This document shows, piece after piece, positions 8,781 through 39,100 of a DNA stretch of 64,000 nt. The notes under the pieces were generated by a model, which saw nothing but the letters and a program-made list of their open reading frames with translations, had not been told where the DNA came from and searched no databases. The number at the start of each line of letters is the position of its first letter. Position 1 is the stretch's first letter. Origin of the DNA: Chlamydiales bacterium (lineage in GTDB: Bacteria > Chlamydiota > Chlamydiia > Chlamydiales > VFKH01); contig JARLHF010000001.1 in NCBI GenBank assembly GCA_031292375.1, forward strand, positions 10,960 to 74,959, written 5' to 3'. Made by a program: the position numbers and the translations under genes.

Positions 8781-9650
8781 ATGAAAAAGAAACTTTTGCT
8801 AGGCTTGTTTGCAGTGATCATCGCAGTGATCGGTATTGTCATTGTATTGGCAAGTGAAAATGCTTTGGTAGTTCATCCTAAAGGGATAATTGCGAAAAGC
8901 CAACTAGAACTGATTATTACGAATATCATTCTCATGCTAATTATCATCGTTCCAACCTACCTCCTTTTATTTACAGTTGTATATAAATACTGCATCAAAA
9001 AAAAACATGCAAAATATAATCCAGATCACTCTTTTGGCCTTATTGGAGAGCTATTAATGTGGGGAGTTCCTTCCATTATAGTTGCTGTGATGGCTGTTGT
9101 GACATGGGATGCCACACATAAACTGAATCCCTATAAACCTATCGAGAGCGATATTAAACCACTTGCTGTGCAAGTCGTTGCTATGGATTGGAAATGGCTA
9201 TTTATTTATCCAGAGCAAGGTATTGCGGTATTAAATGATTTTCATATTCCAGAGAGAACTCCAATTCACTTGAAATTGGCAGCAGATGGTACACCGATGA
9301 ATTCATTTTGGATTCCGCAATTAAGTGGGCAAATATATTCTATGACGGGGATGACAACCCAGTTATACCTGATGGCGGATGGTCCGGGTGAATATAGAGG
9401 CAGAGCTGTTGAGATCAATGGGGAGGGCTATGCGGATATGACATTTCCCGTAACATCATCCTCTCAAGATGATTTTAATGCTTGGGTTACACAGGTAAAA
9501 AAATCATCTCTTTATTTAACCGAACAGACTTATAAAGAACTCGTCAAGCCTTCTGTGAATAAGGCCACCACTCCCTTTTCAGAAGTAGAAAAGGATCTAT
9601 TTGATAAAATAATTCAAAAATATATGTATCCAACCAAACCGGTATTATGA
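8781..9650 (+). CDS. cyoA: Cytochrome bo3-type quinol oxidase subunit II
   Basis: Collinear with CyoA (FWIPQLSGQIYSMTGMTTQLYL). It lacks the CuA Cys/His ligands, so it is a quinol rather than cytochrome c oxidase. N-terminal TM helices. The track start at 8769 is TTG. Confidence 0.85.
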   Translation: MKKKLLLGLFAVIIAVIGIVIVLASENALVVHPKGIIAKSQLELIITNIILMLIIIVPTYLLLFTVVYKYCIKKKHAKYNPDHSFGLIGELLMWGVPSIIVAVMAVVTWDATHKLNPYKPIESDIKPLAVQVVAMDWKWLFIYPEQGIAVLNDFHIPERTPIHLKLAADGTPMNSFWIPQLSGQIYSMTGMTTQLYLMADGPGEYRGRAVEINGEGYADMTFPVTSSSQDDFNAWVTQVKKSSLYLTEQTYKELVKPSVNKATTPFSEVEKDLFDKIIQKYMYPTKPVL

Positions 9651-11614
9651 AAGAATTCTTGCTTGGAAAATTGACTTTAGACGCAATTCCTCATGCCTGG
9701 AATACGATAGGAGGAACTTTTTTTATTATCATGCTAAGCATTGCAATTGCAGTGTACCTCACTAAAACCAAGCGTTGGAACTTTCTTTGGCATGAATGGC
9801 TCACATCTACCGATCCCAAAAAAATTGGGACCATGTACATGATCTTTTCATCTATAATGTTCTTTCGCGGGATGCTAGATGCAGGCATGGTATGGCTTCA
9901 GCAAGCCATTGCAGCAGATTCACAAGGATATCTTACTGCAGACCACTTCCAACAAATTTTTACATCGCATGGCGACATCATGGTTTTTTTCGTAACGATG
10001 GGCTTCTTTTTTGGACTCATGAACTGGATTATACCCCTTCAAATTGGTGCTCGTGACCTTGCTTTCCCGTTTGTGAATTCTTTAGGGTTCTGGCTCACTG
10101 TTGCTGGAGGACTACTTATTAACTTATTTTTTATCGTCGGAGGAGATTTTGCCAACACAGGCTGGCTTGCCATTGCCCCTTTCTCTGAGCTCGAATTTAA
10201 CCCAAGTGTTGGTGTTGATTACCTTATATGGAGTCTACAACTCTCTGGACTTGGTAGTCTACTTGCTGGAATTAATTTTCTCGTTACAATCATAAAAAAA
10301 CGAGCTCCAGGAATGACCTTAATGAAAATGCCTCTATTCACCTGGAATTCCTTGTGCGCAATGGTTCTTATTATTTCAGCCTTTCCAGTACTTACAGCAA
10401 CGACATTGCTTCTTTGGCTTGATCGTGCTTATGGAATGCATTTCTTTACAACAGGGTATTCTGGAAATCAAATGATGTATTGGAACCTCATTTGGATGTG
10501 GGGTCATCCAGAAGTTTATATTTTGGTTATACCTGCATTTGGCATGTTCTCGGAAATTGTCTCCACATTTTCTCAAAAAAAAGCTTCTGGATACGTTTCC
10601 ATGGTATTTGCAGCAATTACAATCACTGGCTTATCCTATCTAGTCTGGCTTCACCACTTTTTTGTTATGGGTGCAGGCCCGGATGTAAACTCTTTTTTTG
10701 GCATGGTAACAATGCTCATAGCAATACCTGCAGGCGTGCAAGTATTTAATTGGATACTTACTATGTATAAAGGAAAAATAAACTTAGCCTCTCCCATGTA
10801 TTGGTTCATCGGTTTTTTAATCTTATTCATGTTAGGAGGCATGGGAGGACTGTTTATGGCATCACCTCCTGCCGATTTTCAAGTGCACAACAGTTTATTC
10901 CTAGTTGCCCATTTCCATACAATGATTGTCGGAGTAGCTCTTTTTGGAATTTTTGCTGGCATCACTTTTTGGTTTCCTAAAATTTTTGGATTTAAACTTG
11001 ATGAACGACTAGACAAACAAGCTTTTTGGTGTTGGTTCATAGGATTTTTTGTAGCCTTTATCCCTCTCTATCTATTGGGGTTCATGGGAGCGCCAAGGCG
11101 TATTGATCACTATGACTCCTCAACTGGATGGCAGCCCTTATATATCACTGCAGCAATTGGGTTTGTCATCATTTCATGCGGAATTGCCACTCAAGTTTAT
11201 CTGTTTATCAAAAGCATTAGGCAAAGAAAACAACACAGGGATACTACAGGAGATCCTTGGAATGGCAGAACGCTTGAATGGGCAACTCATTCCCCACCTC
11301 CATTTTATAATTTTGCAGTAATCCCTTCTATTACAAGTCATGAGGCCTTTTGGGAGATGAAAAAACAGGGCCTGAAGCCAGAAAAAAACTATCACGATAT
11401 CGAGTGTTTTAAAAACACAGGTATGGGGATCTATATATCCTGTTTTGCTTTCTTAGTAGGATTTGCAATTGTCTGGCATATTATTTGGCTCATCGTTGTA
11501 GGTCTCCTTGGAGTCATTGCTTGCATCATCATTCTTTCTTTTAATGATGAAATGGAATATGTACTACCCGCTGCAGAAGTTGCCAAAATTGAACAATCTT
11601 ACCTCAAGAAGTGA
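9647..11614 (+). CDS. cyoB: Quinol oxidase subunit I (heme-copper oxidase)
   Basis: WGHPEVYILVIPAFGMFSE, HFHTMIVG and other HCO subunit I signatures. 655 aa. Confidence 0.95.
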   Translation: MKEFLLGKLTLDAIPHAWNTIGGTFFIIMLSIAIAVYLTKTKRWNFLWHEWLTSTDPKKIGTMYMIFSSIMFFRGMLDAGMVWLQQAIAADSQGYLTADHFQQIFTSHGDIMVFFVTMGFFFGLMNWIIPLQIGARDLAFPFVNSLGFWLTVAGGLLINLFFIVGGDFANTGWLAIAPFSELEFNPSVGVDYLIWSLQLSGLGSLLAGINFLVTIIKKRAPGMTLMKMPLFTWNSLCAMVLIISAFPVLTATTLLLWLDRAYGMHFFTTGYSGNQMMYWNLIWMWGHPEVYILVIPAFGMFSEIVSTFSQKKASGYVSMVFAAITITGLSYLVWLHHFFVMGAGPDVNSFFGMVTMLIAIPAGVQVFNWILTMYKGKINLASPMYWFIGFLILFMLGGMGGLFMASPPADFQVHNSLFLVAHFHTMIVGVALFGIFAGITFWFPKIFGFKLDERLDKQAFWCWFIGFFVAFIPLYLLGFMGAPRRIDHYDSSTGWQPLYITAAIGFVIISCGIATQVYLFIKSIRQRKQHRDTTGDPWNGRTLEWATHSPPPFYNFAVIPSITSHEAFWEMKKQGLKPEKNYHDIECFKNTGMGIYISCFAFLVGFAIVWHIIWLIVVGLLGVIACIIILSFNDEMEYVLPAAEVAKIEQSYLKK

Positions 11615-22821: not shown

Positions 22822-23374
22822 ATGCGTATTGAAGATTGTTTTGTTCCTAACAATTTAGGATCACTTTCTGTTTTTTATGAGAACGAGGAGTTTTTCATAG
22901 AAACAACAGATGGGAAGCGCGCAATTCAAAAATGCGATCTCTCAAAAGAACTAAAAAATATTTCAGAGCCAGCATTATCAGCGCTGCTGTCCAAAGGCCA
23001 ACTATGTGTTATACACAAACAAGTTCAAGAATTGGTTTTTGACAACGCGAAAGCTTTCGCGGTTCAACGATCATAATCAACTCCATATTGCTAATATTGA
23101 GTTGATTATGATCGTTGAGCCTCGGGGCTTTGGCGCAGTCAAAAAACAATTCTTGAACTTGTTTGTGTATAAACCAATAGGAAACGATCATGGCATTGAA
23201 TTTAGAGCAAGAGTCTTAGGTGCTGGTCCTATTCTTGGCGCGCTTACGTTTGGTGTTATGGTTGTTGTTGGTGGCGCACTGACTCTTATTCCAGGTGGGC
23301 AGGCCGTGGGAGCAGCAGTTATAGCCGTTGCTCCCGAAACAGCTGCTGCTGCAACGGCCTTACCTACCCCATAA
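22822..23374 (+). pseudogene. Small membrane protein gene (C-terminal bilobed Gly/Ala-rich hydrophobic domain) interrupted by a MITE
   Basis: The 5' part (track 22777..23076, likely Met at 22822 with a GGAGG RBS) and the 3' part (frame of track 23006..23374) become one continuous frame (...SKGQLCV|KPIGNDHG...) when 160 bp is removed. The 160 bp is the element plus one TA. Confidence 0.6.
23010..23171. mobile_element. 158-bp MITE flanked by a TA target-site duplication; ~32-bp TIRs TACACAAACAAGTTCAAGAATTG(G/T)TTTTTGAC
   Basis: TIRs are read directly (23012-23043 versus the reverse complement of 23138-23169, 1 mismatch). The whole element is a long imperfect palindrome with a central 19-bp stem (CAACGATCATAATCAACTC...GAGTTGATTATGATCGTTG). 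TA is present at 23010-11 and 23170-71. Confidence 0.75.
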
Positions 23375-23428: not shown

Positions 23429-23755
23429 ATGTCAATAACTGTACATAATATTCCAGAAAGCCGTCAAGCCCATCAAAGGGAAAATACGGATGTACCTGCA
23501 GGAGTTCGAAGGAACGGAAGATTTTCTTTTGGCGCTATTACTAGAGCAGCGCTCAAGGTTGCCACAGTGGCAGCTCCCCTTCTATTACTAGCAAGTCAAA
23601 TCTCCGGAGCAGATGCAGGACCTGCTGCATATGCCATCTGTGTGGCAGCTTGCGGAACAATTGTAGGAGTTACCAGTGCTGGCACATTACTTCCAGCAGG
23701 AATAGGCCCTTGCATCAGTGCTTGTTGGACTGCATTCCTTGCACCTACTCTATAA
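23429..23755 (+). CDS. Small membrane protein with a hydrophilic N-terminus and a multi-lobed Ala/Gly/Cys-rich hydrophobic domain (Inc-like candidate)
   Basis: AAGGAG RBS. The first ~35 aa are polar, followed by ALKVATVAAPLLLLASQI-SGADAGP-AAYAICVAACGTIVGVTSAGTLL-PAGIGP-CISACWTAFLAP. Resembles the C-terminus of the upstream interrupted gene. Confidence 0.6.
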   Translation: MSITVHNIPESRQAHQRENTDVPAGVRRNGRFSFGAITRAALKVATVAAPLLLLASQISGADAGPAAYAICVAACGTIVGVTSAGTLLPAGIGPCISACWTAFLAPTL

Positions 23756-23798: not shown

Positions 23799-23911
23799 AG
23801 CTACAAAAGTGTGGTGCTTAAAAATGCTACACAACCCAGATTTTCCAAATGGCAACAGGAAGACCTTCGCGCCCCAATTGCACTGTAGAGTTCAAATGTA
23901 GTAGAGAAATT

Positions 23912-25522
23912 ATGGCCAATGCAGTCGGAATTTATCGAGGATCATTTGATCCACCGCACAACGGGCATTTAGAAGCTGTTAACTATGTATTAAAAACTTG
24001 CATGGCTTCTGTAACTATCGTTTACAAGGACCTAAATTCGTCCAAACCTTTTCGAAGCAATAATAAAATTCGTAAAAAACTTTTGAAAACCATGTTCAAA
24101 GATATGCAAAACGTGGTTATATCAAAAAAAACCTATGAAGCAGCTTTGATTGATTTGCTATCTGATTCTACAATCATCAAAATTTATCACATAATAAGCT
24201 CAAAGACTTTAGATAAACCCATATGGCCAATTGGATTATCAACAAAATTAGCATACTTTATCATCCCAAAAAGGGATTATCCTATTGTAAGACCTGTATC
24301 GAGTTGGAATAATTTACCAGCAGAAACTACTAGTGTTGAGCACTTTACTGAGCGATACCATTCATCTTCCGAATTACGTGCATTGCTTTTTGAAAGAAAT
24401 TTTCAAACTGCAAGCCTTGGCCTGCCTGCCCTAGTTTTTGATCAAATTCTGAGCCAAAACTTCTTTGTATCAAGTGAGAACGAATATTCATTTAGAACCA
24501 TCATTCAAGATGTTAAAAAAATAGTAGAAAATGAAATTGTTCTTAAAAATAGTGTACCCATAGAAAAATATCCCCTTTCGTTTCATATAGGAAATGATAT
24601 TGGTATTAGTGGTCTTTCCAATGATAAAGTCTGTTTTGTCAAAGATAAAGATGAACAAATATGCTTAGTTGTTAAAGTTTTTCTGGGAAATGATTATAAG
24701 GGTAATTATGAGAGTGAACTTTTAGGTTATGCAACTCTCAAAAAGTTAAATTTGCACTTGATACGGATTCCTGAGTTATTTTTTTCACATCAAAAAGAAA
24801 ATTTTGCCTTCATTGGTATGAGCTTTGTCTTAGGCAAATCTCTTGCAGAGATGATGCAAGCCTCTCCTGAGGCAATACGTTTGTGCGCACAAGCCAATCT
24901 TGAGTTACACCTGGCTCAAAGATCACTGGCTACTGAAATATCGGCTCAACAAATAGCTGTTTATGAAGAGGTCATAGTAAGGGTTACTGATAGATTAAGC
25001 AATATACAAACTTCTTTTCTTCCCCCCGATATTGCAGCGAAATTAAAGACTCGTTGGTTACAGAAGCATCTATCGTTTGTTGCTAATCCAGGTTTACTTA
25101 GCTTCACACATGGAGATCCAAATCATAGCAATTGGATTGTCGATTTAGACAATCATTGCGTGACTTATATTGACTTAAGTTTATTTAAACGATCTATTTC
25201 CCCACAAGAGACCCCTAGTGGGTTTGCTATCAACGAAGTAGAAGAGGCTCTGATTATGTTTAGAGTTGCTGGAAAGCAAAGAGGGAATTTATCTAACGAA
25301 CAAATTCGCGAAATACAAGATATATATGTAAAAGAATATATGGATCATGCACCTGTTGATATTACTACACCCGAAGCTAAAGATTATTTTTTTGCCTATT
25401 GGTCCTTGCGGATTATTGAAGAAATTTTAAAGGACTTTATTAATACTGATGTAGAAGAATCTAAGTTAAAATACCAAGCTCAATTAATAAAAAAAATTGA
25501 CTCGTTTTTAAGCGATTCTTAA
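23912..25522 (+). CDS. Fusion protein: NadD-like nucleotidyltransferase (N-terminal) and aminoglycoside/choline-kinase-like phosphotransferase (C-terminal)
   Basis: The N-terminus has GIYRGSFDPPHNGHL (the (H/T)xGH motif) and a C-terminal SSSELR (ISSTxIR-like). The C-terminus has FTHGDPNHSNWIVD...YIDLS (Brenner HxDxxxxN plus DxS/D). The likely Met is at 23912. Confidence 0.7.
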   Translation: MANAVGIYRGSFDPPHNGHLEAVNYVLKTCMASVTIVYKDLNSSKPFRSNNKIRKKLLKTMFKDMQNVVISKKTYEAALIDLLSDSTIIKIYHIISSKTLDKPIWPIGLSTKLAYFIIPKRDYPIVRPVSSWNNLPAETTSVEHFTERYHSSSELRALLFERNFQTASLGLPALVFDQILSQNFFVSSENEYSFRTIIQDVKKIVENEIVLKNSVPIEKYPLSFHIGNDIGISGLSNDKVCFVKDKDEQICLVVKVFLGNDYKGNYESELLGYATLKKLNLHLIRIPELFFSHQKENFAFIGMSFVLGKSLAEMMQASPEAIRLCAQANLELHLAQRSLATEISAQQIAVYEEVIVRVTDRLSNIQTSFLPPDIAAKLKTRWLQKHLSFVANPGLLSFTHGDPNHSNWIVDLDNHCVTYIDLSLFKRSISPQETPSGFAINEVEEALIMFRVAGKQRGNLSNEQIREIQDIYVKEYMDHAPVDITTPEAKDYFFAYWSLRIIEEILKDFINTDVEESKLKYQAQLIKKIDSFLSDS

Positions 25523-26614
25523 CGTTTCTACCACCTGCAAAATCCTTTGAAAGATTTCTTGAGGGGTCGAAGAGGATTTTGCATGAATAACTATAACGCG
25601 ATTTCGCTTAGTCATAATTGATAAAATTTGAGGAATATGTTCTTTAAAAAACTGCAATCGCTGCATAAGTTCTCTAGAGGAAATATCTTCTTTCCTTTTT
25701 ATAAGCATACCTTCGCAATGCGGACAACATCCTTCTTTAGTTAATGAATCTTCTCTTCTAATTTGTATTTCACAGTTAGAGCAAATATAACGATGTTTTA
25801 GGCGATCCAGAATATCAGATTCATCAACGGAAAGGTATATGGGGATATGAATATCATCCGGTCTTAAAAGGCCATCATTATATACCGTAGATTGCGTTTC
25901 TGACCTTGGAAATCCATCCAAAATAAATCCTTTTTTACAATCAGGATCCGCCATTTTCTTCAGTAAAAGTCCATAAGGAATCTCGTCAGCAAATCGCGTT
26001 GGGCTAGAAATCTGATCATGATACAAAATTACCTCTCCAATAGGCGTATTGGCCCTACATTCATTACGATAAAGATCTCCCATCGATAAAGTAGGTATAT
26101 TATATTGTTCTGAAAGTAACTTTCCTTGAGTGCCTTTTCCAACTCCAACTGTGCCTAAAAGATTAATAACTAATCTAGATTCTAAAGAAGATTTTTTTAA
26201 ATTGCTTGGATCCTCTTTAGAACAAGCTGATTGAAAAGCTTCTTTATATCTTATCGAAGAAAGTGTGTGTTCCATATAATCATGGCCTACCCACTCTATT
26301 TGCGTTTCCGCTCCAGAGAGGCCTTCAATAGGATTGTTTTGCATGACACTATGAAAGACGTGCAAAATAGGATCTCTTTGATCCGTAGATGGTATCTTGC
26401 AACAATATGTAAAATTAATCTCCTCAAAGTCTATAGTTGTTTGCTTACGAACGAGTCTTATAATAGCCTGAAAGTAATCTTCAAGTTCTAAAACACGTCC
26501 TCCTGGAATTCTCCAAGATTCTGAAGTATCGGAGTGTTCATGTAAGAGTAAGAATGTTTTTTGATATTCGATAAAACAGATGGATTTTTGTGGTATCAAA
26601 GAACTTGTGGACAT
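25508..26614 (-). CDS. Fusion protein: degenerate Nudix-like domain (N-terminal) and adenylate kinase with a Zn-lid (C-terminal)
   Basis: The C-terminus is collinear with Adk (GTVGVGKGTQ P-loop, FILDGFPR, CSNC...CPHC lid). The N-terminal GGRVLELEDYFQAIIRLVRKQTTI keeps the Nudix spacing but replaces the REUxEE glutamates. Confidence 0.7.
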   Translation of the reverse strand: MSTSSLIPQKSICFIEYQKTFLLLHEHSDTSESWRIPGGRVLELEDYFQAIIRLVRKQTTIDFEEINFTYCCKIPSTDQRDPILHVFHSVMQNNPIEGLSGAETQIEWVGHDYMEHTLSSIRYKEAFQSACSKEDPSNLKKSSLESRLVINLLGTVGVGKGTQGKLLSEQYNIPTLSMGDLYRNECRANTPIGEVILYHDQISSPTRFADEIPYGLLLKKMADPDCKKGFILDGFPRSETQSTVYNDGLLRPDDIHIPIYLSVDESDILDRLKHRYICSNCEIQIRREDSLTKEGCCPHCEGMLIKRKEDISSRELMQRLQFFKEHIPQILSIMTKRNRVIVIHAKSSSTPQEIFQRILQVVETLRIA

Positions 26615-26808: not shown

Positions 26809-27867
26809 ATGACTTTAACAGCGTTGGTGTTACATGATTTTAGAAGAGATGAAAAGCAGCCACTTGTAGTTAAGCCTGAAAAAGATCAAGACCCTTCTGA
26901 AACTGCTTTTAAAATTTTTATGGTCTCTTCGACCCGGCTCCAACAATATGGAACAGGAAAAATTATTTTTTTGTATGGAACGTCAAATGCGGGTAAAACA
27001 TCGATTTGCAAAGAAGTACTAGCAATCCATTCAGATATAGTTGTTGATGGCATTGATGCTGCAATGGATAGGCATTATCTTAAAATCATTTCAAATATTG
27101 GATCTTTTAAGAAATATTTTTTTGACCGCTATTTGACTATTTCCAGGTGTATTGATGATGATGACATCTCAACTTTTGTTAAAGGACACGAGGTTAAATA
27201 TAAACCATTAAGCACAGTAGAAGAGCGCAAAAATGCACTAGCAGCAGCTTCTTATGTTTCAATAATAGAAGAATTATTCTTTAGTGCAACTCACAGGGAT
27301 GCAGCACAAGATAATTTGTTCGAAAGAGCTCTGCATTTATCAGCAAATGAAAAGAATGTTGTCATTGACGCTGTCGAATGTAATGATTTTTTTGGTTATA
27401 AAGTAAGCAGGATGTTTCATTGCCCTTTATTAATTACTCTTGTTCACTGTTCCTTTGTAAAACTAGCAGAGCATAAAGAAAGAAGAAATAGACAGGCCTT
27501 AGAAATAGACCAGGAGCACGATGCAAGATTTGGAACTTATCCTTTCCTTCAATTTACAGATTTTCTTAGGCCTCGAAGAAGCGGGCAAGAAGCGTACATG
27601 CATAGTGTCAATAAAACAACTGTAACTCAAATTTATGATAAGCATTTGAAAGAAGAGTGTCGATTTAGACCTACTCCAGGAACTGGAGAAGAAGATTTGC
27701 AGGGAAGACGCAATTTTGAATTAGGGATATTATACAGTAAGCTAGGGCTAAAAGAGGATCTGCAAGAAGAAGTGCAATTAACATCCAGAGGTTACTTTGA
27801 CATAGAAATTGATACAGGGGTAGACACGCCTGCTCAGGGAGCACTGAAGGTTCTTCAGTTTATTTAA
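26809..27867 (+). CDS. P-loop kinase, chloramphenicol-phosphotransferase-like (CPT family) with a C-terminal extension
   Basis: KIIFLYGTSNAGKTSICKEV Walker A followed by VVDGIDA and VVIDAVECNDFF. This order resembles CPT (IILNGGSSAGKS...FGVDS...IIIDDVF). GGAGG RBS. Confidence 0.45.
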   Translation: MTLTALVLHDFRRDEKQPLVVKPEKDQDPSETAFKIFMVSSTRLQQYGTGKIIFLYGTSNAGKTSICKEVLAIHSDIVVDGIDAAMDRHYLKIISNIGSFKKYFFDRYLTISRCIDDDDISTFVKGHEVKYKPLSTVEERKNALAAASYVSIIEELFFSATHRDAAQDNLFERALHLSANEKNVVIDAVECNDFFGYKVSRMFHCPLLITLVHCSFVKLAEHKERRNRQALEIDQEHDARFGTYPFLQFTDFLRPRRSGQEAYMHSVNKTTVTQIYDKHLKEECRFRPTPGTGEEDLQGRRNFELGILYSKLGLKEDLQEEVQLTSRGYFDIEIDTGVDTPAQGALKVLQFI

Positions 27868-27889: not shown

Positions 27890-28504
27890 ATGGACATTAT
27901 GAATAAATCAATTAGGCTTACTTATCTTTTGGATCCGCACTGCCAGGCATATGAAGAGCAAGGGCCAAAGATAAATGAGTTGCCAGACCCTCTTCTTAAA
28001 GAATACCAGCAAGGGATTATCCTTAGGGATGTAGAGCAAGCCTATTCACAATCTCTTGAGAAATTCCTGTCTGTTGCAGAATTTGGATGTGTAGATGCCA
28101 TGTTTTCAATAGGTCTCTTATTAAAAAACGAGCTTAAAGATATTAAACAAGCGGCTATTTGGTTTACTAAAGCAGCAGATCTTGGTCATAAAGATTCTTT
28201 ATTTTACTTAGGGTTTCTCTACGCAGTTGATCTTGGAGAGTTTGAAACAGCAGCAAGCTGGTATAAAAAGGCAGCAGAGAAAGGAAATCTCGAAGCTTTG
28301 TTTTTCTTAGGCATTATTTATAAAGATGACCTTCATGATTATCCAACGGCGATAGAGTGGTTTCAGAAAGTAGCCAATCTAGGGTATGCAGAAGGCATGT
28401 ATTACTTAGGGCTTATTTACCGCGATCATTTCAATGACCAGAAAAATGCCCAGCAATGGTTTGATCAATATGCCGTTGCTATGCTTCAAAAGAAATACTT
28501 TTAG
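27890..28504 (+). CDS. Sel1-like (TPR-family) repeat protein
   Basis: Four tandem ~36-aa repeats with the A..W..KAA..G...A...LG..Y pattern (AAIWFTKAADLGHKDSLFYLGFLY, ASWYKKAAEKGNLEALFFLGIIY, AIEWFQKVANLGYAEGMYYLGLIY). Confidence 0.85.
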   Translation: MDIMNKSIRLTYLLDPHCQAYEEQGPKINELPDPLLKEYQQGIILRDVEQAYSQSLEKFLSVAEFGCVDAMFSIGLLLKNELKDIKQAAIWFTKAADLGHKDSLFYLGFLYAVDLGEFETAASWYKKAAEKGNLEALFFLGIIYKDDLHDYPTAIEWFQKVANLGYAEGMYYLGLIYRDHFNDQKNAQQWFDQYAVAMLQKKYF

Positions 28505-29247
28505 TGACTATGTCCATGGCCGTTAAAAAGAGCATTTTTTCTAACTTAAGCGAGAAGGAAGTACACGTTTGGATGATAGATATTGAGGCGCACCTTTCTT
28601 CTTTTAATAGCTACGTTCATATTTTATCTGCTGAAGAAACCCTACGGGCAAATGACTATATCTTCTTAGAACATTCTACTCGTTTTGTAATTAGAAGAGC
28701 TATCCTTCGTATTATTTTAAGTTTTTATACGTCCATTTCTCCTAAAAATATTATTATTAGAACAGATCAAAATGGTAAGCCATACTTGGGTTGTTATGAA
28801 TCAAAAATTTTCTTCAGCCTGTCATATTCTCAAAACTTAGTTTATTATGCAATAAGCTCTAAACCTTGCATAGGCATTGATATTGAATATATTTCAGAGA
28901 AGCCCCCAGAAGAAGATTTAGCAAAGCTTGTTCTGCATTCTGAAGAGTACAAACTTTTTGAGAAGCTTTTTTCTTATCAGAAGAGAGATTTATTTTATCA
29001 ATATTGGAGCCAAAAAGAAGCTTTAGTAAAAGCCATTGGCATAGGTCTGAGATTTCCTCTATCAGATATTCATATTGAATTCTCTAATCATCAAGTTTCA
29101 CGCCTTATTAGTTTTGCAACGTCCCCTGTAGATATGTGGTCTTTATCTTCTCTTGAAATCCCTTCAAATTACGTAGGATACATCGCCTTAAAGGGTGAGC
29201 TCGGTCCTATTAAATATCAACAACTTACAAATAGTGAATATGTGTGA
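28504..29247 (+). CDS. 4'-phosphopantetheinyl transferase, Sfp type
   Basis: IGIDIEYI (Mg-binding D-x-E) and YWSQKEALVKAIGIG (W..KE...K) motifs. ~245 aa. Its stop overlaps the NRPS start (ATGTGTGA). Confidence 0.85.
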   Translation: MTMSMAVKKSIFSNLSEKEVHVWMIDIEAHLSSFNSYVHILSAEETLRANDYIFLEHSTRFVIRRAILRIILSFYTSISPKNIIIRTDQNGKPYLGCYESKIFFSLSYSQNLVYYAISSKPCIGIDIEYISEKPPEEDLAKLVLHSEEYKLFEKLFSYQKRDLFYQYWSQKEALVKAIGIGLRFPLSDIHIEFSNHQVSRLISFATSPVDMWSLSSLEIPSNYVGYIALKGELGPIKYQQLTNSEYV

Positions 29248-30100
29248 AGCGCAAACTTTTTTTATTTTAGGCGAAACTTCCTTAACAGCTCAATGTATAG
29301 AGCACTTATTAGATAGAAAGCATTGTATTTCAGGTCTTATTTCTGATGACCCCTGGCTCCAAGCATGGGCACAAGAGCGCAAAATCCCCCTATTTGATAG
29401 TTTTACCTCTTTAACAGAATTTGATTACCTTCTTAGTATCGTAAATCCAAAGCTTATCCCCAAAAAGATTATTCAGTCAGCTAAAAGATTAGCAATTAAT
29501 TATCACGACTCACCACTTCCTGCTTATGCAGGAGTTCATGCAACATCATGGGCTATTTTAAATAATGAAAAGAAACACGGGATTACTTGGCATATCATTA
29601 CAGAACAGATAGATGCAGGTGGTATTGTAAAGCAAGTAATTTTCCCAATCGATAATGGAGAAACTGCTCTCAGTTTGAATATAAAATGCTACCAGCATGC
29701 TTTGCAATCATTTAAAGAGTTGGTAGTTGAGCTAGAAGAAGGTAGCTGCGTATTCAAAAAACAAGATTTAAGCGGTCGTTCTTATTTTGGTTCTCATAAA
29801 AAACCAAAGCATGCAGGAATCATTTCATGGGATCAAAATGCAAGGGAAATAGAGACTCTTTTTAAGGCTCTTGATTTTGGAAACTACCCCAATAAACTTT
29901 GTAGCCCAAAATTATTGATAAAAGAGTATATTCTTTTTCCAAGCAAGATGGAAATTCTTGATCATTCTTCAGAGCACCCGCCTGGAACAATAATAAAAAT
30001 TACAGGGACTCAGATAGAAGTCGCGACTAACACTTCTGATATTCTCCTAACAGTTCAGGAAAACGACTCTCAAAAAATATTGACTATGCCTGGGGAGTGT
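29240..30100 (+). other. NRPS domain: N-formyltransferase (F) domain (approximate bounds)
   Basis: Fmt-like INYHDSPLPAYAGVHATSWAILNNEKKHGITWHIITEQIDAGGIV (HxSLLPxxRG-type and DxG motifs), as in formylating starter modules. Confidence 0.75.
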
Positions 30101-33100
30101 TTAGCTTCTCTGGATAATTCTCAAAAGTTAGAAGAGTTCTGTTATGAGCTCTCTTTCTATGAGAATTTTTGGGTTAAAGAATTACAAAAAACTACTTACT
30201 TAAACTTAGGACAGTATTCATCTTCTCTAGACATACCCTTTGATACGACTTTAAATTTGCCAACCTCGCTATCAAAAGAAAGCTTATTGGCAGCTATATT
30301 GATTTATTTCTATAGAATATCTCAGCAAAGTAATTTTACGGTAAACTACCAAAATATACCTGTTGGAAATGATTTAAACAGGTTTAGTGACTTGTTTATT
30401 ACTGATCTTCCTTTAAATGTTTCGTTTGTTGCTGAAGACACCTTTCTTAGTGCTCAGGAAAAAATATGCAATGCCTTGCAAATATTAAAAAACAAGAAAG
30501 CTTACTTAAAGGACCTCCCCCTAAGATATCCTGAATTATCCAATTCTTCTCAACAAACTTCATTTATTGGAATTCAATACGTAGATGATATAGCTCAAGG
30601 TGTCGTTTCTAATAAATATAGCCTTCAGATTCTCATTTCGAACCCAGGAAATCAATGTAGAATTATTTCCTCTCAAAACTTAGCTTTTCTATTACGAAGT
30701 ACTGAGCATCTTTTATCGCTTTTAGAGGCAATGAATACCAATACTCCGATTATATCTTTGCCTTTGCTTTCTCAAGTAGAGAAAAAGCAAATCTTAACAT
30801 GGAGTGAAAACAATAGTTCTGATTGTTTTTCTATGTGTACTCATAAATTAATTGAGCGATATGCATTAAAGAATCCTAAGGCCCTTGCAATAGCCTGTGA
30901 TGAATCCTTTCTCTCTTATGAAGAATTAAATAATCGAGCCGAAATAATATCAAAACATTTATGTCTAATGGGAGTTGGGCCAGAAGTTAATGTAGTCCTA
31001 TGCCTAGAAAAATCTTTAGCGCTTGTTATTGCTATGTTAGCAGTGATGAAATCTGGAGGAGCTTTTGTGCCATTAGAGCCTAGCCAACCTGAAGAGCGCC
31101 TTCATTACATTTTAAATGATGCTAAACCTATATTAGTTTTAACACAAAAATCCTTAGAAGCCAAGTTGATGAGAGTCAAGACCCCTCTTTGCTTCATCGA
31201 AGAGGCACTTGCTCCAAAGCATGAAAAACAAGATAAACCCTTTAAGCAACTATACTTATCTAACCGTGCTTATATTATTTATACTTCAGGGTCTACAGGC
31301 TTTCCTAAAGGGGTAGAAGTTGAACACAAACAATTGGCCTTTGTACTGAAGGCAAAAGCATTACAATATCCCCTCAAACATTTAAAATTTTTGTGGGTAG
31401 GCTCAATTAGTTTTGATATCTCTATTGCTAACATTTTGTTGCCCCTTATTTCGGGTGGTACGCTTTATTTTTCTGCTAAAGTCTCTAATACAGATTCAGA
31501 TAGTATTGTACAGCTTTTGAATCGACACAAGATTAATCATTTTGGTCCTCCTGTGTCTCTTTATTCTCTGATCTTAGAACAAAATAAAAAGCTTAGTTGT
31601 CCCACCCTAGAATACGTATGCGTTGGAGGTGAAGCTCTTACAGATTCTATTGTCTTACTACATCAAAAGTATTTTCCACAGGCTGTTTTATTTAATGAAT
31701 ATGGCCCTACAGAATGTACAATTGTATCTTCCTATTCAAAAGTATATGATCCAAATATATTCTCTAGTGCACCTATTTCTATAGGAAAGCCTATTGAAAG
31801 GGCTAAAATGTATGTTCTTGATCATCATCTTCAAATACTTCCTATCGGAGTTAGGGGGGAAATTTATATAGGTGGAGAAGGTGTTGCAAGAGGATATGTG
31901 AACAATCCAGAGCTAACTCATGAAAAATTTATTAACTCTTCTCTTTTTGGTCGTTTATATAAAACAGCAGATCTGGGTTGTTGGCTGCCCCATGGGGAGA
32001 TTCAGTTTGTTGGAAGATCTGATCAACAAATAAAGTTTAGAGGTTATCGGATTGAACTAGAAGAGATTGAAAGAACTTTATGCGGCTATAAAGGCATTCA
32101 ACAGGCAGTAGTTTCTTTAACAGACAATGGTAAGAGGCTTATTGCCTATTTAGTCTTAGAAGCTGATCATGATTCTTTAGTTGAAGATTCTCTTAGAAGT
32201 CACTTAAATACCTACCTTCCTGTATATATGATCCCTTCTGCTTTTTTTATTTTGGATAAATTTCCTTTAACAATAAATGGGAAAATAGATCGCAATGCTC
32301 TTCCTGAACCCATTGTAAGTAGGTCAGGCAACCTTAATTATAAAGCACCTAGAACTGCAGATGAACAATCAATTGCGGAAATATGGTCTTGGCACTTAAA
32401 AGTTGAGCGCATAGGATTGCTAGATAGCTTTTTCGAATTGGGAGGCCACTCGTTACTGGCTGTCCAGGTAATTGTTTCATTGCAGAATACTTTTAAAATA
32501 GAAATCCCTCTAAAAAGCCTTTATGAGCATCCGATTTTAGAAAAATTTGTACAATTCATAACTGATTCAAAAGCTTCGACTACTGTTGCGTCTGTTGAGG
32601 CGTATCCAAAAGTAATCTCCAATCCTTCTGATCGATTTTTAGAATTTCCTTTGACAGATATTCAACAAGCATACTGGATTGGAAGAAATGAAGTTTTTTC
32701 TTTAAGCCAAATTGCGGTTCACGGATATAGTGAATATGAGTGTGATCATTTGGATTTAAATCTACTAGAAAATAGCTGGAATCAATTAATTCGTCGACAT
32801 GAGGCTTTAAGGCTTATTTTTCCTGGGGATGGAATGCAAAAAATTCTTCCGGAAGTTTCTCACTATACTATCCAATGTTTTGACTTTTCTAAAGAAACAG
32901 AAAAGGCTACAGAAACCCATCTTGACAAATTAAGAGAGCGTTTATCCCATCAGGTACTACCAACAGAAATCTGGCCTCTTTTTGAGGTATGTGTTACGAA
33001 AAAGAAAAACAGCTACCGTTTACACTTTAGCATAGATGGTCTTATTGTCGATGGTTGGAGTTTCAATATCTTGCTTTCCGAGTGGGCAAAACTATACTTT

Positions 33101-36100
33101 GAGCCAGAGATGGCTTTAGCGCCTTTAGGAGTTTCTTTCAGAGACTATGTTTTAACAGAAATTCAATTAAAACAACGTAGCCTATATAATAGAGATAAGA
33201 ACTACTGGCTATCTCGACTTTCCGATTTTCCAATTGGGCCTTCTCTTCCTCTTTTTAAACATCCAAAAGAAATAGAAAAACCTGTTTTTGATCGATGTAC
33301 AAAGAAGCTAGAAAAGCATCTCTGGGGACCCCTTAAGGAGCAGATCAAAGCGAGGGGTTTGACTCCAACATCTTTTTTGTTAGCGCTTTTTGGTGAAATT
33401 TTACAATTTTGGAGTAATAGTTCACGTTTTACCATCACCCTTACACTATTTAATCGTTTGCCATTTCATCCCCAAATCAATGAAATCATGGGAGATTTTA
33501 CCTCTCTAACGTTATGTGAAATTGATAATAGAGAGAAAACCACTTTTGTAGAAAGAACTCAAAAGCTACAAGCACGCTTATTTTCAGATATTGACCATCG
33601 CTTGTTTAGTGGAATAGAAGTACTACGTGAATTAAGTCGACAAACCCAAAGCTCTTGGGATGCTTCACTAATACCTGTTGTTTTCACCTCTTTATTGGCG
33701 GAAGAATCTCAAGAAAATAAAACAAATTTTACTACAAATCAGGTGTACAGTATTACACAAACACCTCAAGTGTGGTTAGATTACAAAGCATATAGCCAAT
33801 CAGGAGAACTTGTCGTAGAATGGGATTATGTTAAAGGATTATTTCCAGACAACTTAATTGAAGATATGCACCAAGCCTACTTCAGATTATTGGATAGATT
33901 AGTACATTCAAAAGAGGCTTGGGATCAAACTTGTTTTGATCTGCTTCCCATAAAACAAGAAGCTTGTCGTAATGATACTAATGCAACACACTGGGAAGTC
34001 AAACAGCTCCTTTTACAAGAATTATTCCATTGTAAGGCAAAAGAAATGCCTAATCAGACTGCAGTCATTTATGAAGGAAACTTTCTTTCTTATAAAGAGT
34101 TGCAAATAACATCTAATCAACTAGGCAGCTATTTACGTCATAAAGGAGCCACGCCTAATCGTTTGGTTGCTATCGTCATGGATAAATGTCTAGAGCAGGT
34201 TATAGCGTGCCTTGGGATCCTTAATGCAGGCGCGGCATATTTACCGATTAGTGCCGATCTTCCAGAAGAGAGAATCGTTGAATTACTTAAATTGGGAGAA
34301 GTAGATTTTATTCTGACACAGAATAAGTATCTTAAGAAGCTATCTACACAAAAACTGGAGAACAAGCTTTTAATTACATTAGATGGACTTCAAGCGGATG
34401 TATGGAAGCAGGAAAGCTGTGCGTATTTAAAACCTGTTCAAGTTCTTGATGACCTTGCTTATGTCATTTTCACCTCTGGTTCTACTGGAATTCCAAAAGG
34501 AGTGATGATTAATCATAGAGGAGCTGTAAATACAATTCTCGATATGAACGAGCGATTCAAAGTAAATCATCATGATCGAGTTTTAGCAATTTCTAATTTA
34601 AACTTTGACTTATCCGTCTATGATATCTTTGGCTTATTAGCTTGTGGAGGCACTATTGTCATACCTCGTTCTGAAGATATTAAAGAACCTGTTTGTTGGT
34701 TAGAATTGCTGCAGCTATATAAAGTGACTATCTGGAATAGCGTTCCTATGTTTATGAGCATGCTTGTAGAATATCTAAAAGATAGAGAAGAAGGCATGTC
34801 AACTAATACCGCTTTACGACTGGTCTTACTCAGTGGTGATTGGATACCTCTGGACCTACCACATTCCATTAAAGAGTTTTTTCACCAGCCTGACGTTATC
34901 AGCTTAGGTGGCGCTACAGAGGCCTCTATTTGGTCTATTATTTATCCTATCAACAACGTGCTTCCCGAATGGAAAAGTATTCCTTATGGCCTACCTTTAC
35001 GCAATCAGGAAATGCACGTATTAAATGAGTATTTGCAATCTTGTCCAGACGGAGTGCAAGGAGATATTTATATTGGTGGTATTGGCCTTGCAAAAGGTTA
35101 TTGGATGGATAAGAAAAGGAGTGATGCGCAATTTATCTTTCATGCTAGCTGGAAAAAGCAACTCTATAAAACAGGAGATTTGGGAAGATATTATCCTAAC
35201 GGTGTAATTGAATTTCTTGGTCGTAGCGATAGTCAAGTAAAAGTCAATGGGTATAGAATTGAACTTGGCGAGATACAGAAAACATTAGAATCTCACAAAG
35301 ACATTTCCCATGCTCTTATTACAACACTTGGAGAGAAAGATAAAGAAAAGCAATTGATTGCTTATTTGGCCCTAAGTAACAATCAGGCGCCTGAAATTCA
35401 AAGTGCTGAAATTCAAGATCCTGTAGACAGGATAAATTTTAAGCTGAGTCTTGCAAATACAAGAAGAGTTTTAAAAGAACATAAAAACATTCAGTTTGAC
35501 ATTCCAAAGAACGATTACTCAAAGCTTTTCCGTCGTAAAAGTTATCGTTGCTATGACGGGAACAAGATAAACTCTTCAATTTTGATTAATATATTATGTA
35601 AAAGTTTGAAATCTTCTGGAATTATGGGAAAAGCTAGAGAAGATGCAATTCCTCTCTCAAAATTTGATAGTTTTTTAATGCCCTTAACCGCTTATAGGTT
35701 TCCAGAGTCCCCTATTCCAAAATACACATACCCTTCTGCAGGTGCTCTTTATCCCGTCCAAGTTTATATAAAAGTAAATAGCATTTCAGGAATAGATGCA
35801 GGAGTGTATTTTTTCAATCAAACTGAAAGAAGATTATGTCTGGTTGATGATGAATTATTACCCCTTGATGATCCTAATGATCATTTTACTTTATATTTAG
35901 TAGGAAGAACATCACTTATTAAACCTATGTATGGAGACCTTTGGAGAGAATTTTGTGAACTTGAAATAGGCTATATTGTCCACCTATTAAACAAGTCAGC
36001 AGTTTCTCAGGATTTTCAGCTGATGATGAAACATATGGATGGCAATGAGCCAATCACTATTTTGGGAGCAAGCTATGTTAATGTAAAACAAGAATGCCCC

Positions 36101-39100
36101 TTAGCTCCTGAGGTTGAAGTTTGTGTGTATATTAAGCCAGAGGCCTTAATTGATCTCACAGAGGGATGGTATCAATTTGAGACAAAGGCAAAAAAATTAA
36201 TTCTGATAAAAGATACAATCTCCTTCAACCCGCAATTGGCAGTTACTGACTATTACTCTATCCTAATGGAAGCTTCATTCACCCTATTTTTTTTAAGTGA
36301 CGCTAAGAATTACGCCAGAAGAGTGCAAATTGGAATGTTTGCGCAGCATATTATGGAGAAAGGAATAGATGAGCTAATTGGTTTTTGCCCAATTGGAACA
36401 CTAGACAACAACTGTACTGCTCAATATAGGGAAATTTTAGGTTCTCAACATGTGCTCCATGTCCTAACAGGCGGACCTGTTAGTCAAGCACAATTGCAAG
36501 AAAGAGGTAGCTCCATTCCCAAACCCCCAGAAGAGCGACTTTCTCAAGACTTACAACTTTTTTTAAAGGACAAGCTTCCTGACTATTTTATCCCTTCTTT
36601 TTTCTTAGTTTTAGAAAAATTTCCTCTCTCAGTAAATGGTAAAATTGATTATAAGTCTTTACCCATCCCACAGAACGGACAAAGCATTTCCAAACGTTAT
36701 ATACCTCCTCGCACGGACGTAGAAGAAAAATTGGCTACTATTTGGTCTGAAGTATTGAAAATAGGAAATATAGGGATCCAGGACCATTTTTTCCTCCTTG
36801 GAGGCCATTCCCTCTCAGGCGTGCAAGTACTTTCTCGTATTAGAAAAGTTTTTAGTCTAGATTTTCCAATTAAAAAAATCTTCGAGTATCCAATTCTTGA
36901 AGCTCTAGCAACTCAGATAGCTAAAGAAAGTGAAAAAACCTCTCAATTTGTCTATCCCCCAATAACAAAAGAACCCCATAGTAAGTATTATCCTCTTTCA
37001 TTTACACAGCAGCGTTTATGGTTTTTAGATCAACTGTTAGATAACAAATTGGTTTATATGATTCCCTTGGCATTTAGGCTAAAAGGGTTTCTTGTCCTTG
37101 ATAAATTAAAAATAGGATTAACAAATCTGATCAAGCATCATGAGATTCTTAGGACTGTATTTATCTCTGAAATGGGGATAGCAAAACAGACTGTCTTAGA
37201 AACAAGCTTTTTCGATCTTCCTGTTTATGATCTTTTAAAAGAAAACTCTCTAGTGACAGATCATATGGAAGAAGAAGCCATAACACCTTTTGATTTATCA
37301 AAAGGTCCTTTGATAAGAGGAAGATTACTAAAAATTGAAGAAAACGAGCATATTTTTTTGCTTACTATTCATCATATCATCACAGATGAGTGGTCTATTC
37401 GAGTTTTATTACGAGAAATAAGTTATCTCTATAACTCTTTAAGTGAACTTCCAAAGACACAAACGGCTTCTGATACTATTGAGTATGTAGATTTTACTTG
37501 TTGGCAACGCAATTGGCTAAAGGATAGTATTTTAGAAAAACAATTAAAATTCTGGAAAAATGAGCTAGAAAATTGTACCGATTTATTGCAACTTCCCACA
37601 GATAAACAGCGCCCACAGAGGCCCACCCATCAAGGGGCTATTTTTTCTTATATTATTCCTTCCAAGCTTACTGATCTTTTGAAAAAGACGGCGGAATCAC
37701 AAAAAGTGACTCTATTTATGGTTTTATTGGGAGCCTTTCAAACATTTTTACATCGTTACTCTGGTCAAATAGACATTATAACTGGTTTTCCTGTAGCCAA
37801 TAGACATTATCCTGGAGTAGAAAACCTCTTGGGATATTTTGCCAATACTGTTGTGCTTAGAACAACTTTCCACTCAGAAAGTAACTTCAAAGAAATTTTA
37901 AGCCAAATCAGAGATAAAACAACAAAAATTTATGAGAACCAAGATGTTCCTTTTGAATATTTAGTAGATTATTTGAAGATTCCAAGAGATTTAAGTCGCC
38001 ATCCTCTTTTTCAAGTTATGTTTGTCTATAGAAATAGCAACTTGACTGAACTCATATTGAATGGATTAGAAGTTGAAGAGCTTCCTGTAAACCACCGTGC
38101 TGCAAAATTCGATCTTGTGTTAACAGCTGAAGAAACCCTGAATGAACTAAAGCTAGAGTTTGAATATGCAGTAGATTTATTTGATAAAAGTACTATTCAA
38201 AGAATGTCCCAAAATTTTATTAAGCTGCTAGAAAGTATTGTGGCAAATTTAGATCAACAAGTAAGTCTTCTAGATATTGTTGCAGAACAAGAGTATGACA
38301 AAATTATCCATGAGTGGAATAAAACAGAATGTTTGTTTACTGCTCCATTTTGTTTACATCAGCTCTTTGAAAAAAGAGCTGGTCAAAGTCCAGAACATCC
38401 AGCTCTCATCTTTGAAGAAAAAATAATCTCATACGCAGAATTAAATAAACAATCTAATCGTTTAGCTCGTTATCTTAGAAAATTAAATATATCTTCAGAT
38501 GTTATTGTGGGCATTGCTTTAGAACGCTCTATTGAATTGGTTATCGCTATTTATTCTACTATGAAGGCAGGAGGCGCCTATCTTCCTTTAGAGTTGACCT
38601 ATCCAAAGGATCGCCTTAACTATATGCTAGAGGATGCAAGTGTAGAGGTAGTGATTACACTTACAACAGATCGTGATAAATTTTTAAATTTTAAAGGAAC
38701 GATTTTATGTTTAGATCAACTAGAAATAGATGAAAGCGAAGAAAACTTAAGCATTGATTACCCTCTTTCTTCTCTTGCGTATGTTATTTATACATCAGGT
38801 TCTACTGGGCAGCCAAAAGGGGTCTGTATTGAGCATAAAGGACTTGTTAACCGTATATTATGGATGCAAAATGAGTATCAGTTACTGTCTTACGATAGAG
38901 TACTCCAGAAGACGCCCTTTAGCTTTGATGTTTCTGTTTGGGAGTTTTTTTGGCCTCTCTCATTTGGAGCGTCATTAGTTATAGCCAAGCCAAAAGCCCA
39001 CCGCGATACCGAAGAGCTCATCTACACCATTCAACGTTACTTTATTACATGCATGCATTTTGTTCCGTCTATGCTTGGTTCATTTTTAGAGCTTCAGGGA

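Follow-up and report, generated by a model that had tools for sequence, protein, structure and literature searches.

The stretch of DNA analysed here comprises 64,000 nucleotides of a Chlamydiales bacterium (assembly GCA_031292375.1, contig JARLHF010000001.1, positions 10,960 to 74,959 of the forward strand) and is called "the window" throughout. At 23912-25522 (+), it carries a gene in which a NadD-like nucleotidyltransferase of the HxGH class (aa 1-190) is joined to an APH/eukaryotic-like kinase (aa 205-536). The gene is a complete open reading frame (ORF) of 536 aa plus stop, located within an uninterrupted ORF stretch that spans 23849-25522 (+), and the ATG at 23912 was chosen as start codon because the N-termini of orthologues begin there, which supports the gene start given in a preliminary description of this DNA made from its letters alone. 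The identical protein is present at NCBI (P0001), titled 'MAG: phosphotransferase [Chlamydiales bacterium]' (MAG, metagenome-assembled genome) and located on a 114-kb contig, so that the source is an environmental chlamydia. The gene and its protein contain the following features, for which residue conservation was computed over 64 family members:

23912-25522, + strand: whole fusion protein (ORF list, orthologue starts, identical NCBI entry)
23912-24481, + strand: NadD-like HxGH-class transferase domain, aa 1-190 (Pfam CTP_transf_like; family profile against NadD structures)
23939-23971, + strand: GSFDPPHNGHL, the HxGH nucleotide-binding signature, aa 10-20 (G10, F12, D13, P14, H16, G18 and H19 91-97% conserved)
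24029-24058, + strand: DLNSSKPFRS, the family motif D-x-N-x-x-K-P-x-R (aligned with NadD 'N-V-P-P-H-R-P')
24194-24211, + strand: ISSKTL, a degenerate version of the family 'IIGSDLL' motif with G96S and D98K (G and D 97% conserved)
24263-24280, + strand: IPKRDY, the family 'IPRxDY' with R120K (R 97% conserved; aligned with the arginine of NadD 'RPG')
24359-24379, + strand: HSSSELR, the SSTxxR second signature of HxGH transferases, aa 150-156 (S151 and S152 98%, R156 94% conserved)
24422-24466, + strand: LPALVFDQILSQNFF, the C-terminal NadD-type helix (lP..V..yI...gLY) leading into the linker (aligned with 1kam IPDKVKKYVEENGLY)
24524-25519, + strand: APH/eukaryotic-like kinase domain, aa 205-536 (Pfam APH; Foldseek)
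24611-24631, + strand: GLSNDKV, the glycine-rich loop, family 'GLSGD' with G237N (S236 95%, G237 88% conserved)
24668-24730, + strand: VVKVF ... ESELLGY, with the beta3 lysine K255 and the alphaC glutamate E269 (100% and 92% conserved)
25109-25135, + strand: HGDPNHSNW, the catalytic loop (Brenner motif HxDxxxxN), aa 400-408 (H400, D402 and N407 100% conserved)
25166-25180, + strand: YIDLS, with the metal-binding Asp (DFG equivalent), aa 419-423 (D421 100% conserved)
25214-25411, + strand: family-specific C-lobe elements P-x-GF(A/P)xxE, Y476 and (F/Y)YW-x-LR (G437 98%, Y476 100%, W497 98% conserved)

Integrity and distribution of the fusion

The preliminary description had raised the possibility that the two halves are separate genes joined by an error. 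A sequencing or assembly join is ruled out by the continuous fusion in many independent assemblies and by the linker between the two domains, which is conserved and gap-free in the alignment. Homologues fall into 30 chlamydial clusters with 33-63% identity to the window protein, nearly all of them full length and drawn from independent NCBI, ENA, JGI and Logan assemblies. An exhaustive profile search returned 3557 relatives (38 with E <1e-30), and dozens of distant relatives of 500-620 aa match both halves continuously. AlphaFold2 models the window protein as one compact chain of two domains (predicted local distance difference test, pLDDT, 91.5; predicted template modelling score, pTM, 0.85), with helices H173-182, H189-193 and H195-212 running unbroken from the transferase domain into the kinase. 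The confidence of this single-chain model, in particular its pTM, indicates that the two domains would be held in a fixed arrangement.

Members of the family are found in environmental Chlamydiae, in a Legionella-like bacterium and in klosneuvirus-type giant viruses, i.e., the family is confined to microbes of amoebae and other protists, including giant viruses. Among viral models (BFVD), Foldseek finds relatives from Harvfovirus, Yasminevirus and Terrestrivirus, and a shorter member of 437 aa (P0070; L016 7001-8314) lies on a mimivirus-type giant-virus contig, with MIMI_R596-like Evr1/Alr, XRN, Ras, Ser/Thr kinase and Asp/Asn-tRNA synthetase genes as neighbours. As judged from the alignment, both predicted active sites are under selection across the family. 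Two members, P0021 and P0030, have lost the HxGH region and kept the kinase, which hints that the kinase can stand alone, and three distant members (P0034, P0039, P0051) carry a Sec-type signal peptide right before the transferase domain. Very large multidomain relatives also occur (P0081, 1435 aa; P0087, 2626 aa; P0073, 861 aa): the family kinase domain is found C-terminally in such proteins, also as a tandem pair, and the 2626-aa relative contains the transferase domain twice. This suggests modular reuse of both domains, possibly in secreted proteins.

The architecture had previously been presumed uncharacterised, and the searches agree: no PDB entry with both domains and no curated family for the architecture was found, database names are generic only, with almost none available for the distant members, and nothing relevant was found in the literature on the architecture, on chlamydial NAD salvage or on the giant-virus homologues. 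What is new is this particular domain pairing and its context, the general concept of kinase/HxGH-nucleotidyltransferase fusions being well known.

Affinities of the two domains

Both halves exceed the Pfam gathering scores, and the catalytic set is intact, so that the proposal of a NadD-like transferase and an APH-type kinase on one chain holds, and the motifs on which it was based (GSFDPPHNGHL, SSSELR, HGDPNHSNW, DLS) all lie where they had been placed. For the transferase half, Pfam CTP_transf_like matches aa 7-76 of the window protein with 24.4 bits (gathering cut-off 21). Searched as a single sequence, the window protein has PPAT/CoaD as its best NCBIfam match (6.7e-8), followed by NadD, and B. 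subtilis NadD as its top PDB match (2e-3). An N-domain profile built from 21 diverse family members, the window protein included, aligns with the NadD structure 1kam over positions 3-189 (E 5.8e-14), i.e., over the whole domain including the C-terminal lP..V..yI...LY helix, and this full-length match bears out the assignment as a nucleotidyltransferase on which the preliminary description depended. The alignment of the same profile to PPATs is limited to the first ~70 residues and that to CCT/ECT/TagD to ~60 aa (E about 3e-5 to 6e-5; positions 6-62 for 2b7l and 3elb). A PPAT identity (CoaD, TIGR01510) was rejected, since the score is 32.7 bits against a cut-off of 103.3 and the profile match covers only positions 3-75, whereas NadD is matched at full length. 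Likewise, the RTEGISTS signature of CCT/ECT/TagD was not found in the window protein, its second signature being HSSSELR. All 21 tested N-domains match NadD/NMNAT models best, and all remain under the cut-offs: for the NadD equivalog TIGR00482 (cut-off 112.45), the window protein scores 22.2 bits and the family maximum is ~57 bits, as opposed to 147-149 bits for true NadDs from the same search (P0167, P0169). Because these scores lie so far under the cut-off, the family N-domain is best classified as NadD-like, but not as an orthologous NadD.

A comparison with the active site of NadD leads in the same direction. The window protein contains the NadD marks HNGH (aa 16-19) and HSSSELR, the latter aligned with NadD VSSTMIR, and N42, K45, P46 and R54 are invariant or near-invariant in the family. 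In E. coli NadD, the stacking partners of the pyridine ring are H45 and W117, and Y84 and Y118 set the preference for nicotinic acid mononucleotide versus nicotinamide mononucleotide; G107 and D109 are at most 8 A away from the adenine moiety, the backbone of G107 is docked to the adenine of ATP, and R134 is an ATP contact (PMC8035330). The glycine and aspartate of the family GSD motif (positions 96 and 98) align with G107 and D109, and R120 aligns with R134. In the profile alignment to E. coli NadD, K45 falls on R46 and the pyridine-stacking H45 on a variable family position, the SYT loop with Y84 ('rnapsyta') appears as a NadD insertion that is not found in the family, and the family residues aligned with the W117/Y118 pair are unconserved. 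This residue alignment, combined with the reported residue roles, argues that the family keeps the half of the NadD active site that binds the nucleoside triphosphate (NTP), and that its putative acceptor pocket is not recognisable as a pyridine-nucleotide pocket.

The window copy deviates from the family in precisely this region, which the preliminary description did not show. It differs at 4 of 37 conserved positions, namely G96S and D98K (GSD to SSK), R120K and G237N, all of which are 88-97% conserved, and it is the sole member among 64 with a non-acidic residue at position 98. Three of the four substitutions map by alignment to that side of the E. coli NadD pocket which takes up the nucleotide (ATP): the GxD motif and the RPG arginine of NadD have no match in the window protein (SSK and K), while GSD and R stand at 97% in the family. 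HxGH and SSSxxR are intact. The unique substitutions at ATP-side positions suggest that the transferase half of the window copy may be weakened or re-specified.

The kinase half is matched by Pfam APH (PF01636) at aa 233-422 (33.2 bits, gathering cut-off 23.2), as are all 18 family kinase domains (best 1.8e-18), while Choline_kinase (PF01633) gives no match for the window protein and weak ones for 3 of 18 relatives. The catalytic set K255, E269, H400-x-D402-x4-N407 and D421 is 92-100% conserved and intact in the window copy. With the modelled kinase half, Foldseek places APH(2'')-Ia/IVa and APH(3') at the top (E about 5e-9, 13-18% identity), suggesting a fold of this type. By sequence profile, Bud32-type kinases, Mph(2'), OspG and APH(2'') are all distant from the kinase domain to nearly the same degree (all E >= 1e-4), with E-values of 1e-4 to 1e-3 for APH(2'')/Mph(2')-type sequences. 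The window protein stays under the cut-off of the aminoglycoside-resistance equivalog NF033068 APH(3') (21.9 bits against 205), and neither the P-loop ribosylnicotinamide kinase model nor a PfkB domain has a match in it. Profile comparison revealed no counterpart of the family C-lobe motifs in characterised APH subfamilies, and we infer that these motifs are a candidate substrate pocket.

Genomic context of the fusion

In other genomes, the fusion belongs to a recurrent neighbourhood: at 7 of 10 chlamydial loci, it is followed by a GT32-type glycosyltransferase (GT), an IQ-motif protein and a GT28-like GT, in this order (e.g., L003 8001-13517 for all four genes). Loci with this module include those of STE3, a Rhabdochlamydiaceae MAG and a Waddliaceae MAG, down to 34% identity to the window protein. 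The first partner is a DXD glycosyltransferase of ~325 aa (Pfam Gly_transf_sug 1.6e-13, Caps_synth, weak TcdA_TcdB), relatives of which are called GT32/Och1-like in source databases; the second, of ~400 aa and from an uncharacterised family, has a conserved N-terminal IQ motif of the calmodulin-binding type, IQxxWRGxxVRR (Pfam 7.5e-6); the third, of ~580 aa, has a GT28/GT1-like C-terminal half (PDB processive diacylglycerol beta-glucosyltransferase, 1.9e-7). The model of the IQ protein (pLDDT 88.8; example P0180, L003 10592-11755) resembles atypical kinases of the Bud32/PRPK/RIO type (Foldseek 4ww5 1e-4) and also Legionella Lpg2603 (4e-3), and the conserved K79, E122, RxDNxP and IDLG motifs would fit such a fold. 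A search of the PDB with the IQ family profile returned nothing, the kinase fold being visible only after structure prediction, and hhalign of the IQ family against the fusion kinase yields a match of 19 columns only (3.5% probability). In two lineages (Rhabdochlamydiaceae and Waddliaceae), the GT32-type GT and the IQ protein are themselves fused, e.g., at L005 9361-11184. Even P0041, a very distant fusion, adjoins the same three genes, on a contig that also has a Legionella_OMP gene. F-box and leucine-rich repeat (LRR) proteins are among the neighbours in some other loci. As a separate observation, an IQ-protein paralogue with an extra C-terminal domain is encoded at L013. At the closest orthologous locus (L001, 63% identity), the GT32-type gene (9392-10341) is present in two overlapping pieces, 9452-9922 and 9805-10341, owing to either a frameshift or a sequencing error.

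In the same locus, from one uncultured chlamydial species, the gene immediately upstream of the fusion encodes an NrtR-type regulator (NUDIX plus NrtR winged helix). This NrtR-like gene is itself preceded, at a distance of 20-100 bp, by two copies of the palindrome TAGTGT-N7-ACACT(A) (6368-6385 and 6425-6442), likely its autoregulatory operator. A link of the fusion to an NrtR regulon was rejected, since the palindrome pair is found upstream of nrtR in this one species and not in the window or at other loci. No NAD genes were seen beside the fusion at 17 loci.

The window copy stands apart from this arrangement. No companion module turned up when the window was searched by tblastn for the GT, IQ and GT-B proteins, and the homologue lists contain no further family or module protein attributable to the same MAG. 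Its neighbours (a NUDIX-adenylate kinase, a chloramphenicol-phosphotransferase-like protein, Sel1, a 2-oxoglutarate oxygenase, a 4'-phosphopantetheinyl transferase (PPTase), a non-ribosomal peptide synthetase (NRPS) and small ORFs) are found beside no other family member. The NUDIX-adenylate kinase gene (25508-26614, -) is convergent with the fusion gene, the 3' ends overlapping by 15 bp, and encodes 368 aa with an unusual pairing of a NUDIX domain (aa 17-114) and a full adenylate kinase with lid (aa 150-364; NCBIfam adk 1.6e-37, under cut-off). It is followed at 26809-27867 (+) by a gene for 352 aa, the only match of which is N-terminal and to a chloramphenicol-phosphotransferase-like P-loop domain (PF07931, 1.4e-6); with it, three successive genes are of a nucleotide-handling or kinase type. 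The PPTase and a single multi-module NRPS ORF of 5083 aa occupy 28504-44446 (+), with a DUF2608 protein and an FAD monooxygenase on the downstream flank. Immediately upstream of the fusion are two small ORFs at 23006-23374 and 23429-23755 (+), whose products of 122 and 108 aa are hydrophobic and rich in Gly and Ala in their C-terminal halves and match nothing in Pfam. A near-perfect palindrome of 164 bp (23009-23172; arms 23009-23089 and 23093-23172, 91% complementary) precedes the fusion gene by about 740 bp; it yields mirror-image ORFs on both strands and might represent a hairpin element or an insertion of the MITE kind (miniature inverted-repeat transposable element). Farther away, the window has a biotin operon (3573-8223), a haem-copper oxidase subunit I gene (9647-11614) and a carbohydrate-active cluster (49124-58318) with a GT2, a GH64-like beta-1,3-glucanase, a GMC oxidoreductase, a glucose dehydrogenase and a GH63/MGH1-like hydrolase.

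Possible functions and related systems

The reading that we tentatively favour, as possible rather than probable, is that the fusion is a genuine bifunctional kinase/transferase, which activates a small molecule X for the linked module (X-OH to X-P to NDP-X), X being a non-pyridine sugar, polyol or amino-alcohol. The APH-type kinase would phosphorylate a hydroxyl of X, and the transferase domain would then move a nucleoside monophosphate, by NadD ancestry probably AMP, from an NTP onto that phosphate, giving NDP-X. Since the elements with which NadD holds the pyridine are missing, X would probably not be nicotinamide riboside (NR) or nicotinic acid riboside (NaR). A sugar, polyol or amino-alcohol appears more likely, and a choline/alcohol or sugar substrate, as put forward alongside NR in the preliminary description, fits the genomic context better than NR salvage. 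The activated X might serve the enzymes encoded beside the fusion, i.e., the GT32-type GT, the IQ-motif kinase and the GT28-like GT. Kinases fused to HxGH transferases carry out adjacent steps in HldE, NadR, RibF and CoA synthase, and the Kennedy pathway pairs a kinase of choline-kinase fold with a PF01467 cytidylyltransferase. By analogy with the four fused enzymes, the earlier proposal of phosphorylation followed by nucleotidylation is reasonable, although the order of the two reactions is one that we infer.

Several observations weigh against a two-step activation of X. The kinase is equally distant from every characterised APH subfamily, so that homology gives no substrate, and sugar-1-phosphate nucleotidyltransferases are usually of a different fold. 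Both module GTs start with signal-peptide-like hydrophobic segments, which together with the fusion of the GT32-type GT to the IQ kinase implies that their site of action may lie beyond the bacterial cytoplasm, and a bacterial enzyme that makes donors would hardly be useful there. Moreover, the module is missing beside the giant-virus homologues and several bacterial ones, and likewise beside the copies at L007, L008 and in the window, and the SSK and K substitutions of the window copy could mean that this copy carries out no transferase step.

An unlikely but substantial alternative is NadR-like NAD salvage, in which the APH-type kinase would phosphorylate NR or NaR and the NadD-like domain would adenylylate the mononucleotide to NAD or nicotinic acid adenine dinucleotide, in chlamydiae without de novo NAD synthesis; many Chlamydiae import NAD instead of making it. 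Homology to NadD over the whole length of the N-domain, C-terminal helix included, and the preference of 21 out of 21 tested members for NadD/NMNAT models agree with this, as does the database name of a Yasminevirus relative, nicotinate (nicotinamide) nucleotide adenylyltransferase. The NrtR-type regulator with its palindromic box pair directly upstream is the only NAD-flavoured clue from the context, but it occurs in one species only, and the boxes lie upstream of nrtR, not of the fusion. The family scores of 22-57 bits, where the NadD equivalog requires 112 and true NadDs reach 147-149, the deleted SYT loop with Y84, the unconserved W117/Y118 positions, the variable position at H45 and the conserved synteny with glycosyltransferases, with no NAD genes seen beside 17 loci, speak against it, which is why NR salvage, an option in the preliminary description, is not the leading one. 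Rather unlikely, and ranked after NAD salvage, is that the fusion, the GT32-type enzyme and the IQ kinase act together inside the eukaryotic host, their substrate being a macromolecule (a protein, a lipid or a glycan); the two activities may then be used separately, or a target may be phosphorylated and the phosphate subsequently adenylylated. Legionella effectors with a different fold provide a precedent for phosphoryl-AMPylation. A host-directed role would agree with the Sec-type signal peptides of P0034, P0039 and P0051, with giant multidomain proteins that have the kinase domain C-terminally and the doubled transferase domain of the 2626-aa protein, with the conserved IQ motif (Pfam E 7.5e-6) and the Bud32/RIO/Lpg2603-like kinase fold predicted for the partner, with the F-box and LRR neighbours and with the giant-virus homologues. 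Around its DXD site, the partner GT is similar to SetA and to the GTs of clostridial toxins, but GT32 (Och1/MIPC-synthase type) is a better match for it than the toxin enzymes are. Furthermore, the window protein and its close orthologues start at the first Rossmann strand without a signal peptide, and, to our knowledge, characterised enzymes of the NadD/PPAT class act on small molecules.

That the window copy is decaying or kinase-only, with an inactive transferase half or, at the extreme, as the relic of a gene, seems improbable, and this would be compatible with any of the other readings. It would account for the sole non-acidic residue at the GSD aspartate among 64 members, along with G96S, R120K and G237N, and for the loss of the companion module, and it has a parallel in P0021 and P0030, which lost the HxGH region and kept the kinase. 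Against decay stand the full-length intact ORF, the intact HxGH and SSSxxR motifs, the high pLDDT throughout and the fact that only 4 of 37 conserved positions differ. Very improbable is the modification of a xenobiotic or antibiotic, by which a drug-like molecule would be phosphorylated and then modified by the transferase, for self-resistance or tailoring tied to the adjacent NRPS cluster. Aminoglycoside and macrolide phosphotransferases are indeed the best structural matches, and the fusion lies 3.7 kb upstream of the 5083-aa NRPS with its PPTase, beside the chloramphenicol-phosphotransferase-like P-loop protein. However, the NRPS or those neighbours recur at 0 of 16 other loci, APH entries dominate the PDB, which makes the structural ranking unspecific, and we know of no role of NadD-like domains in resistance.

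Kinase/HxGH-transferase fusions define the routes to NAD, FAD, CoA and ADP-heptose, and a two-step activation of X would add another route, with a different kinase fold. Taken together, the taxonomic restriction and the conserved linkage to two GTs and the IQ kinase suggest that intracellular microbes have an undescribed pathway, either for a glycoconjugate or for host manipulation. More specifically, but decidedly doubtful, the fusion could be the donor-making or target-priming enzyme of an unrecognised four-gene host-interaction module that has been passed between environmental chlamydiae and Legionella-like bacteria, giant viruses having related fusions. It would then make an unprecedented ADP- or NDP-linked compound; alternatively, a host molecule would be phosphorylated and then adenylylated, which would be new chemistry for the NadD fold. 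If instead NAD salvage were correct, the family would contain a non-orthologous NR kinase that would explain cofactor salvage in some chlamydiae. In any case, the family offers a tractable target that is soluble, confidently modelled and equipped with testable motifs.

Among known systems, NadD itself (B. subtilis 1KAM, E. coli 1K4K) shares with the fusion family HxGH, SSTxxR, the GxD and R motifs and the C-terminal lP..V..yI...LY helix. The fusion family differs from it by scores at a fifth to half of the equivalog cut-off, the deleted SYT loop, the missing W-Y pair and the fused kinase, and the window copy additionally by SSK in place of GSD. NadR likewise has an HxGH adenylyltransferase and a substrate-making kinase on one chain, and the fusion N-domain weakly matches nadR_NMN_Atrans; the NadR kinase, however, is a C-terminal P-loop enzyme, whereas the fusion kinase would be of the APH/protein-kinase fold, and nothing points to a pyridine substrate. 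APH(2''), APH(3') and Mph(2') resemble the kinase half in predicted fold and catalytic motifs, but at 13-18% identity and without GF(A/P)xxE or YW-LR, and the fusion has no resistance context outside the window. In the Kennedy pathway, the same superfamilies (APH/ChoK-fold kinase, PF01467 transferase) phosphorylate and then nucleotidylate an alcohol, but they do so as separate proteins in known organisms, and the fusion N-domain resembles NadD, not CCT/ECT/TagD. For a fusion that serves its GT neighbours, the closest analogy would be HldE/RfaE (heptose kinase/heptose-1-phosphate adenylyltransferase), in which a kinase and an HxGH-class transferase on one chain make an ADP-sugar for GTs, albeit with a PfkB-fold kinase, in reversed domain order and with rfaE_dom_II touched by only 2 of 21 family N-domains, weakly (3.7e-4).

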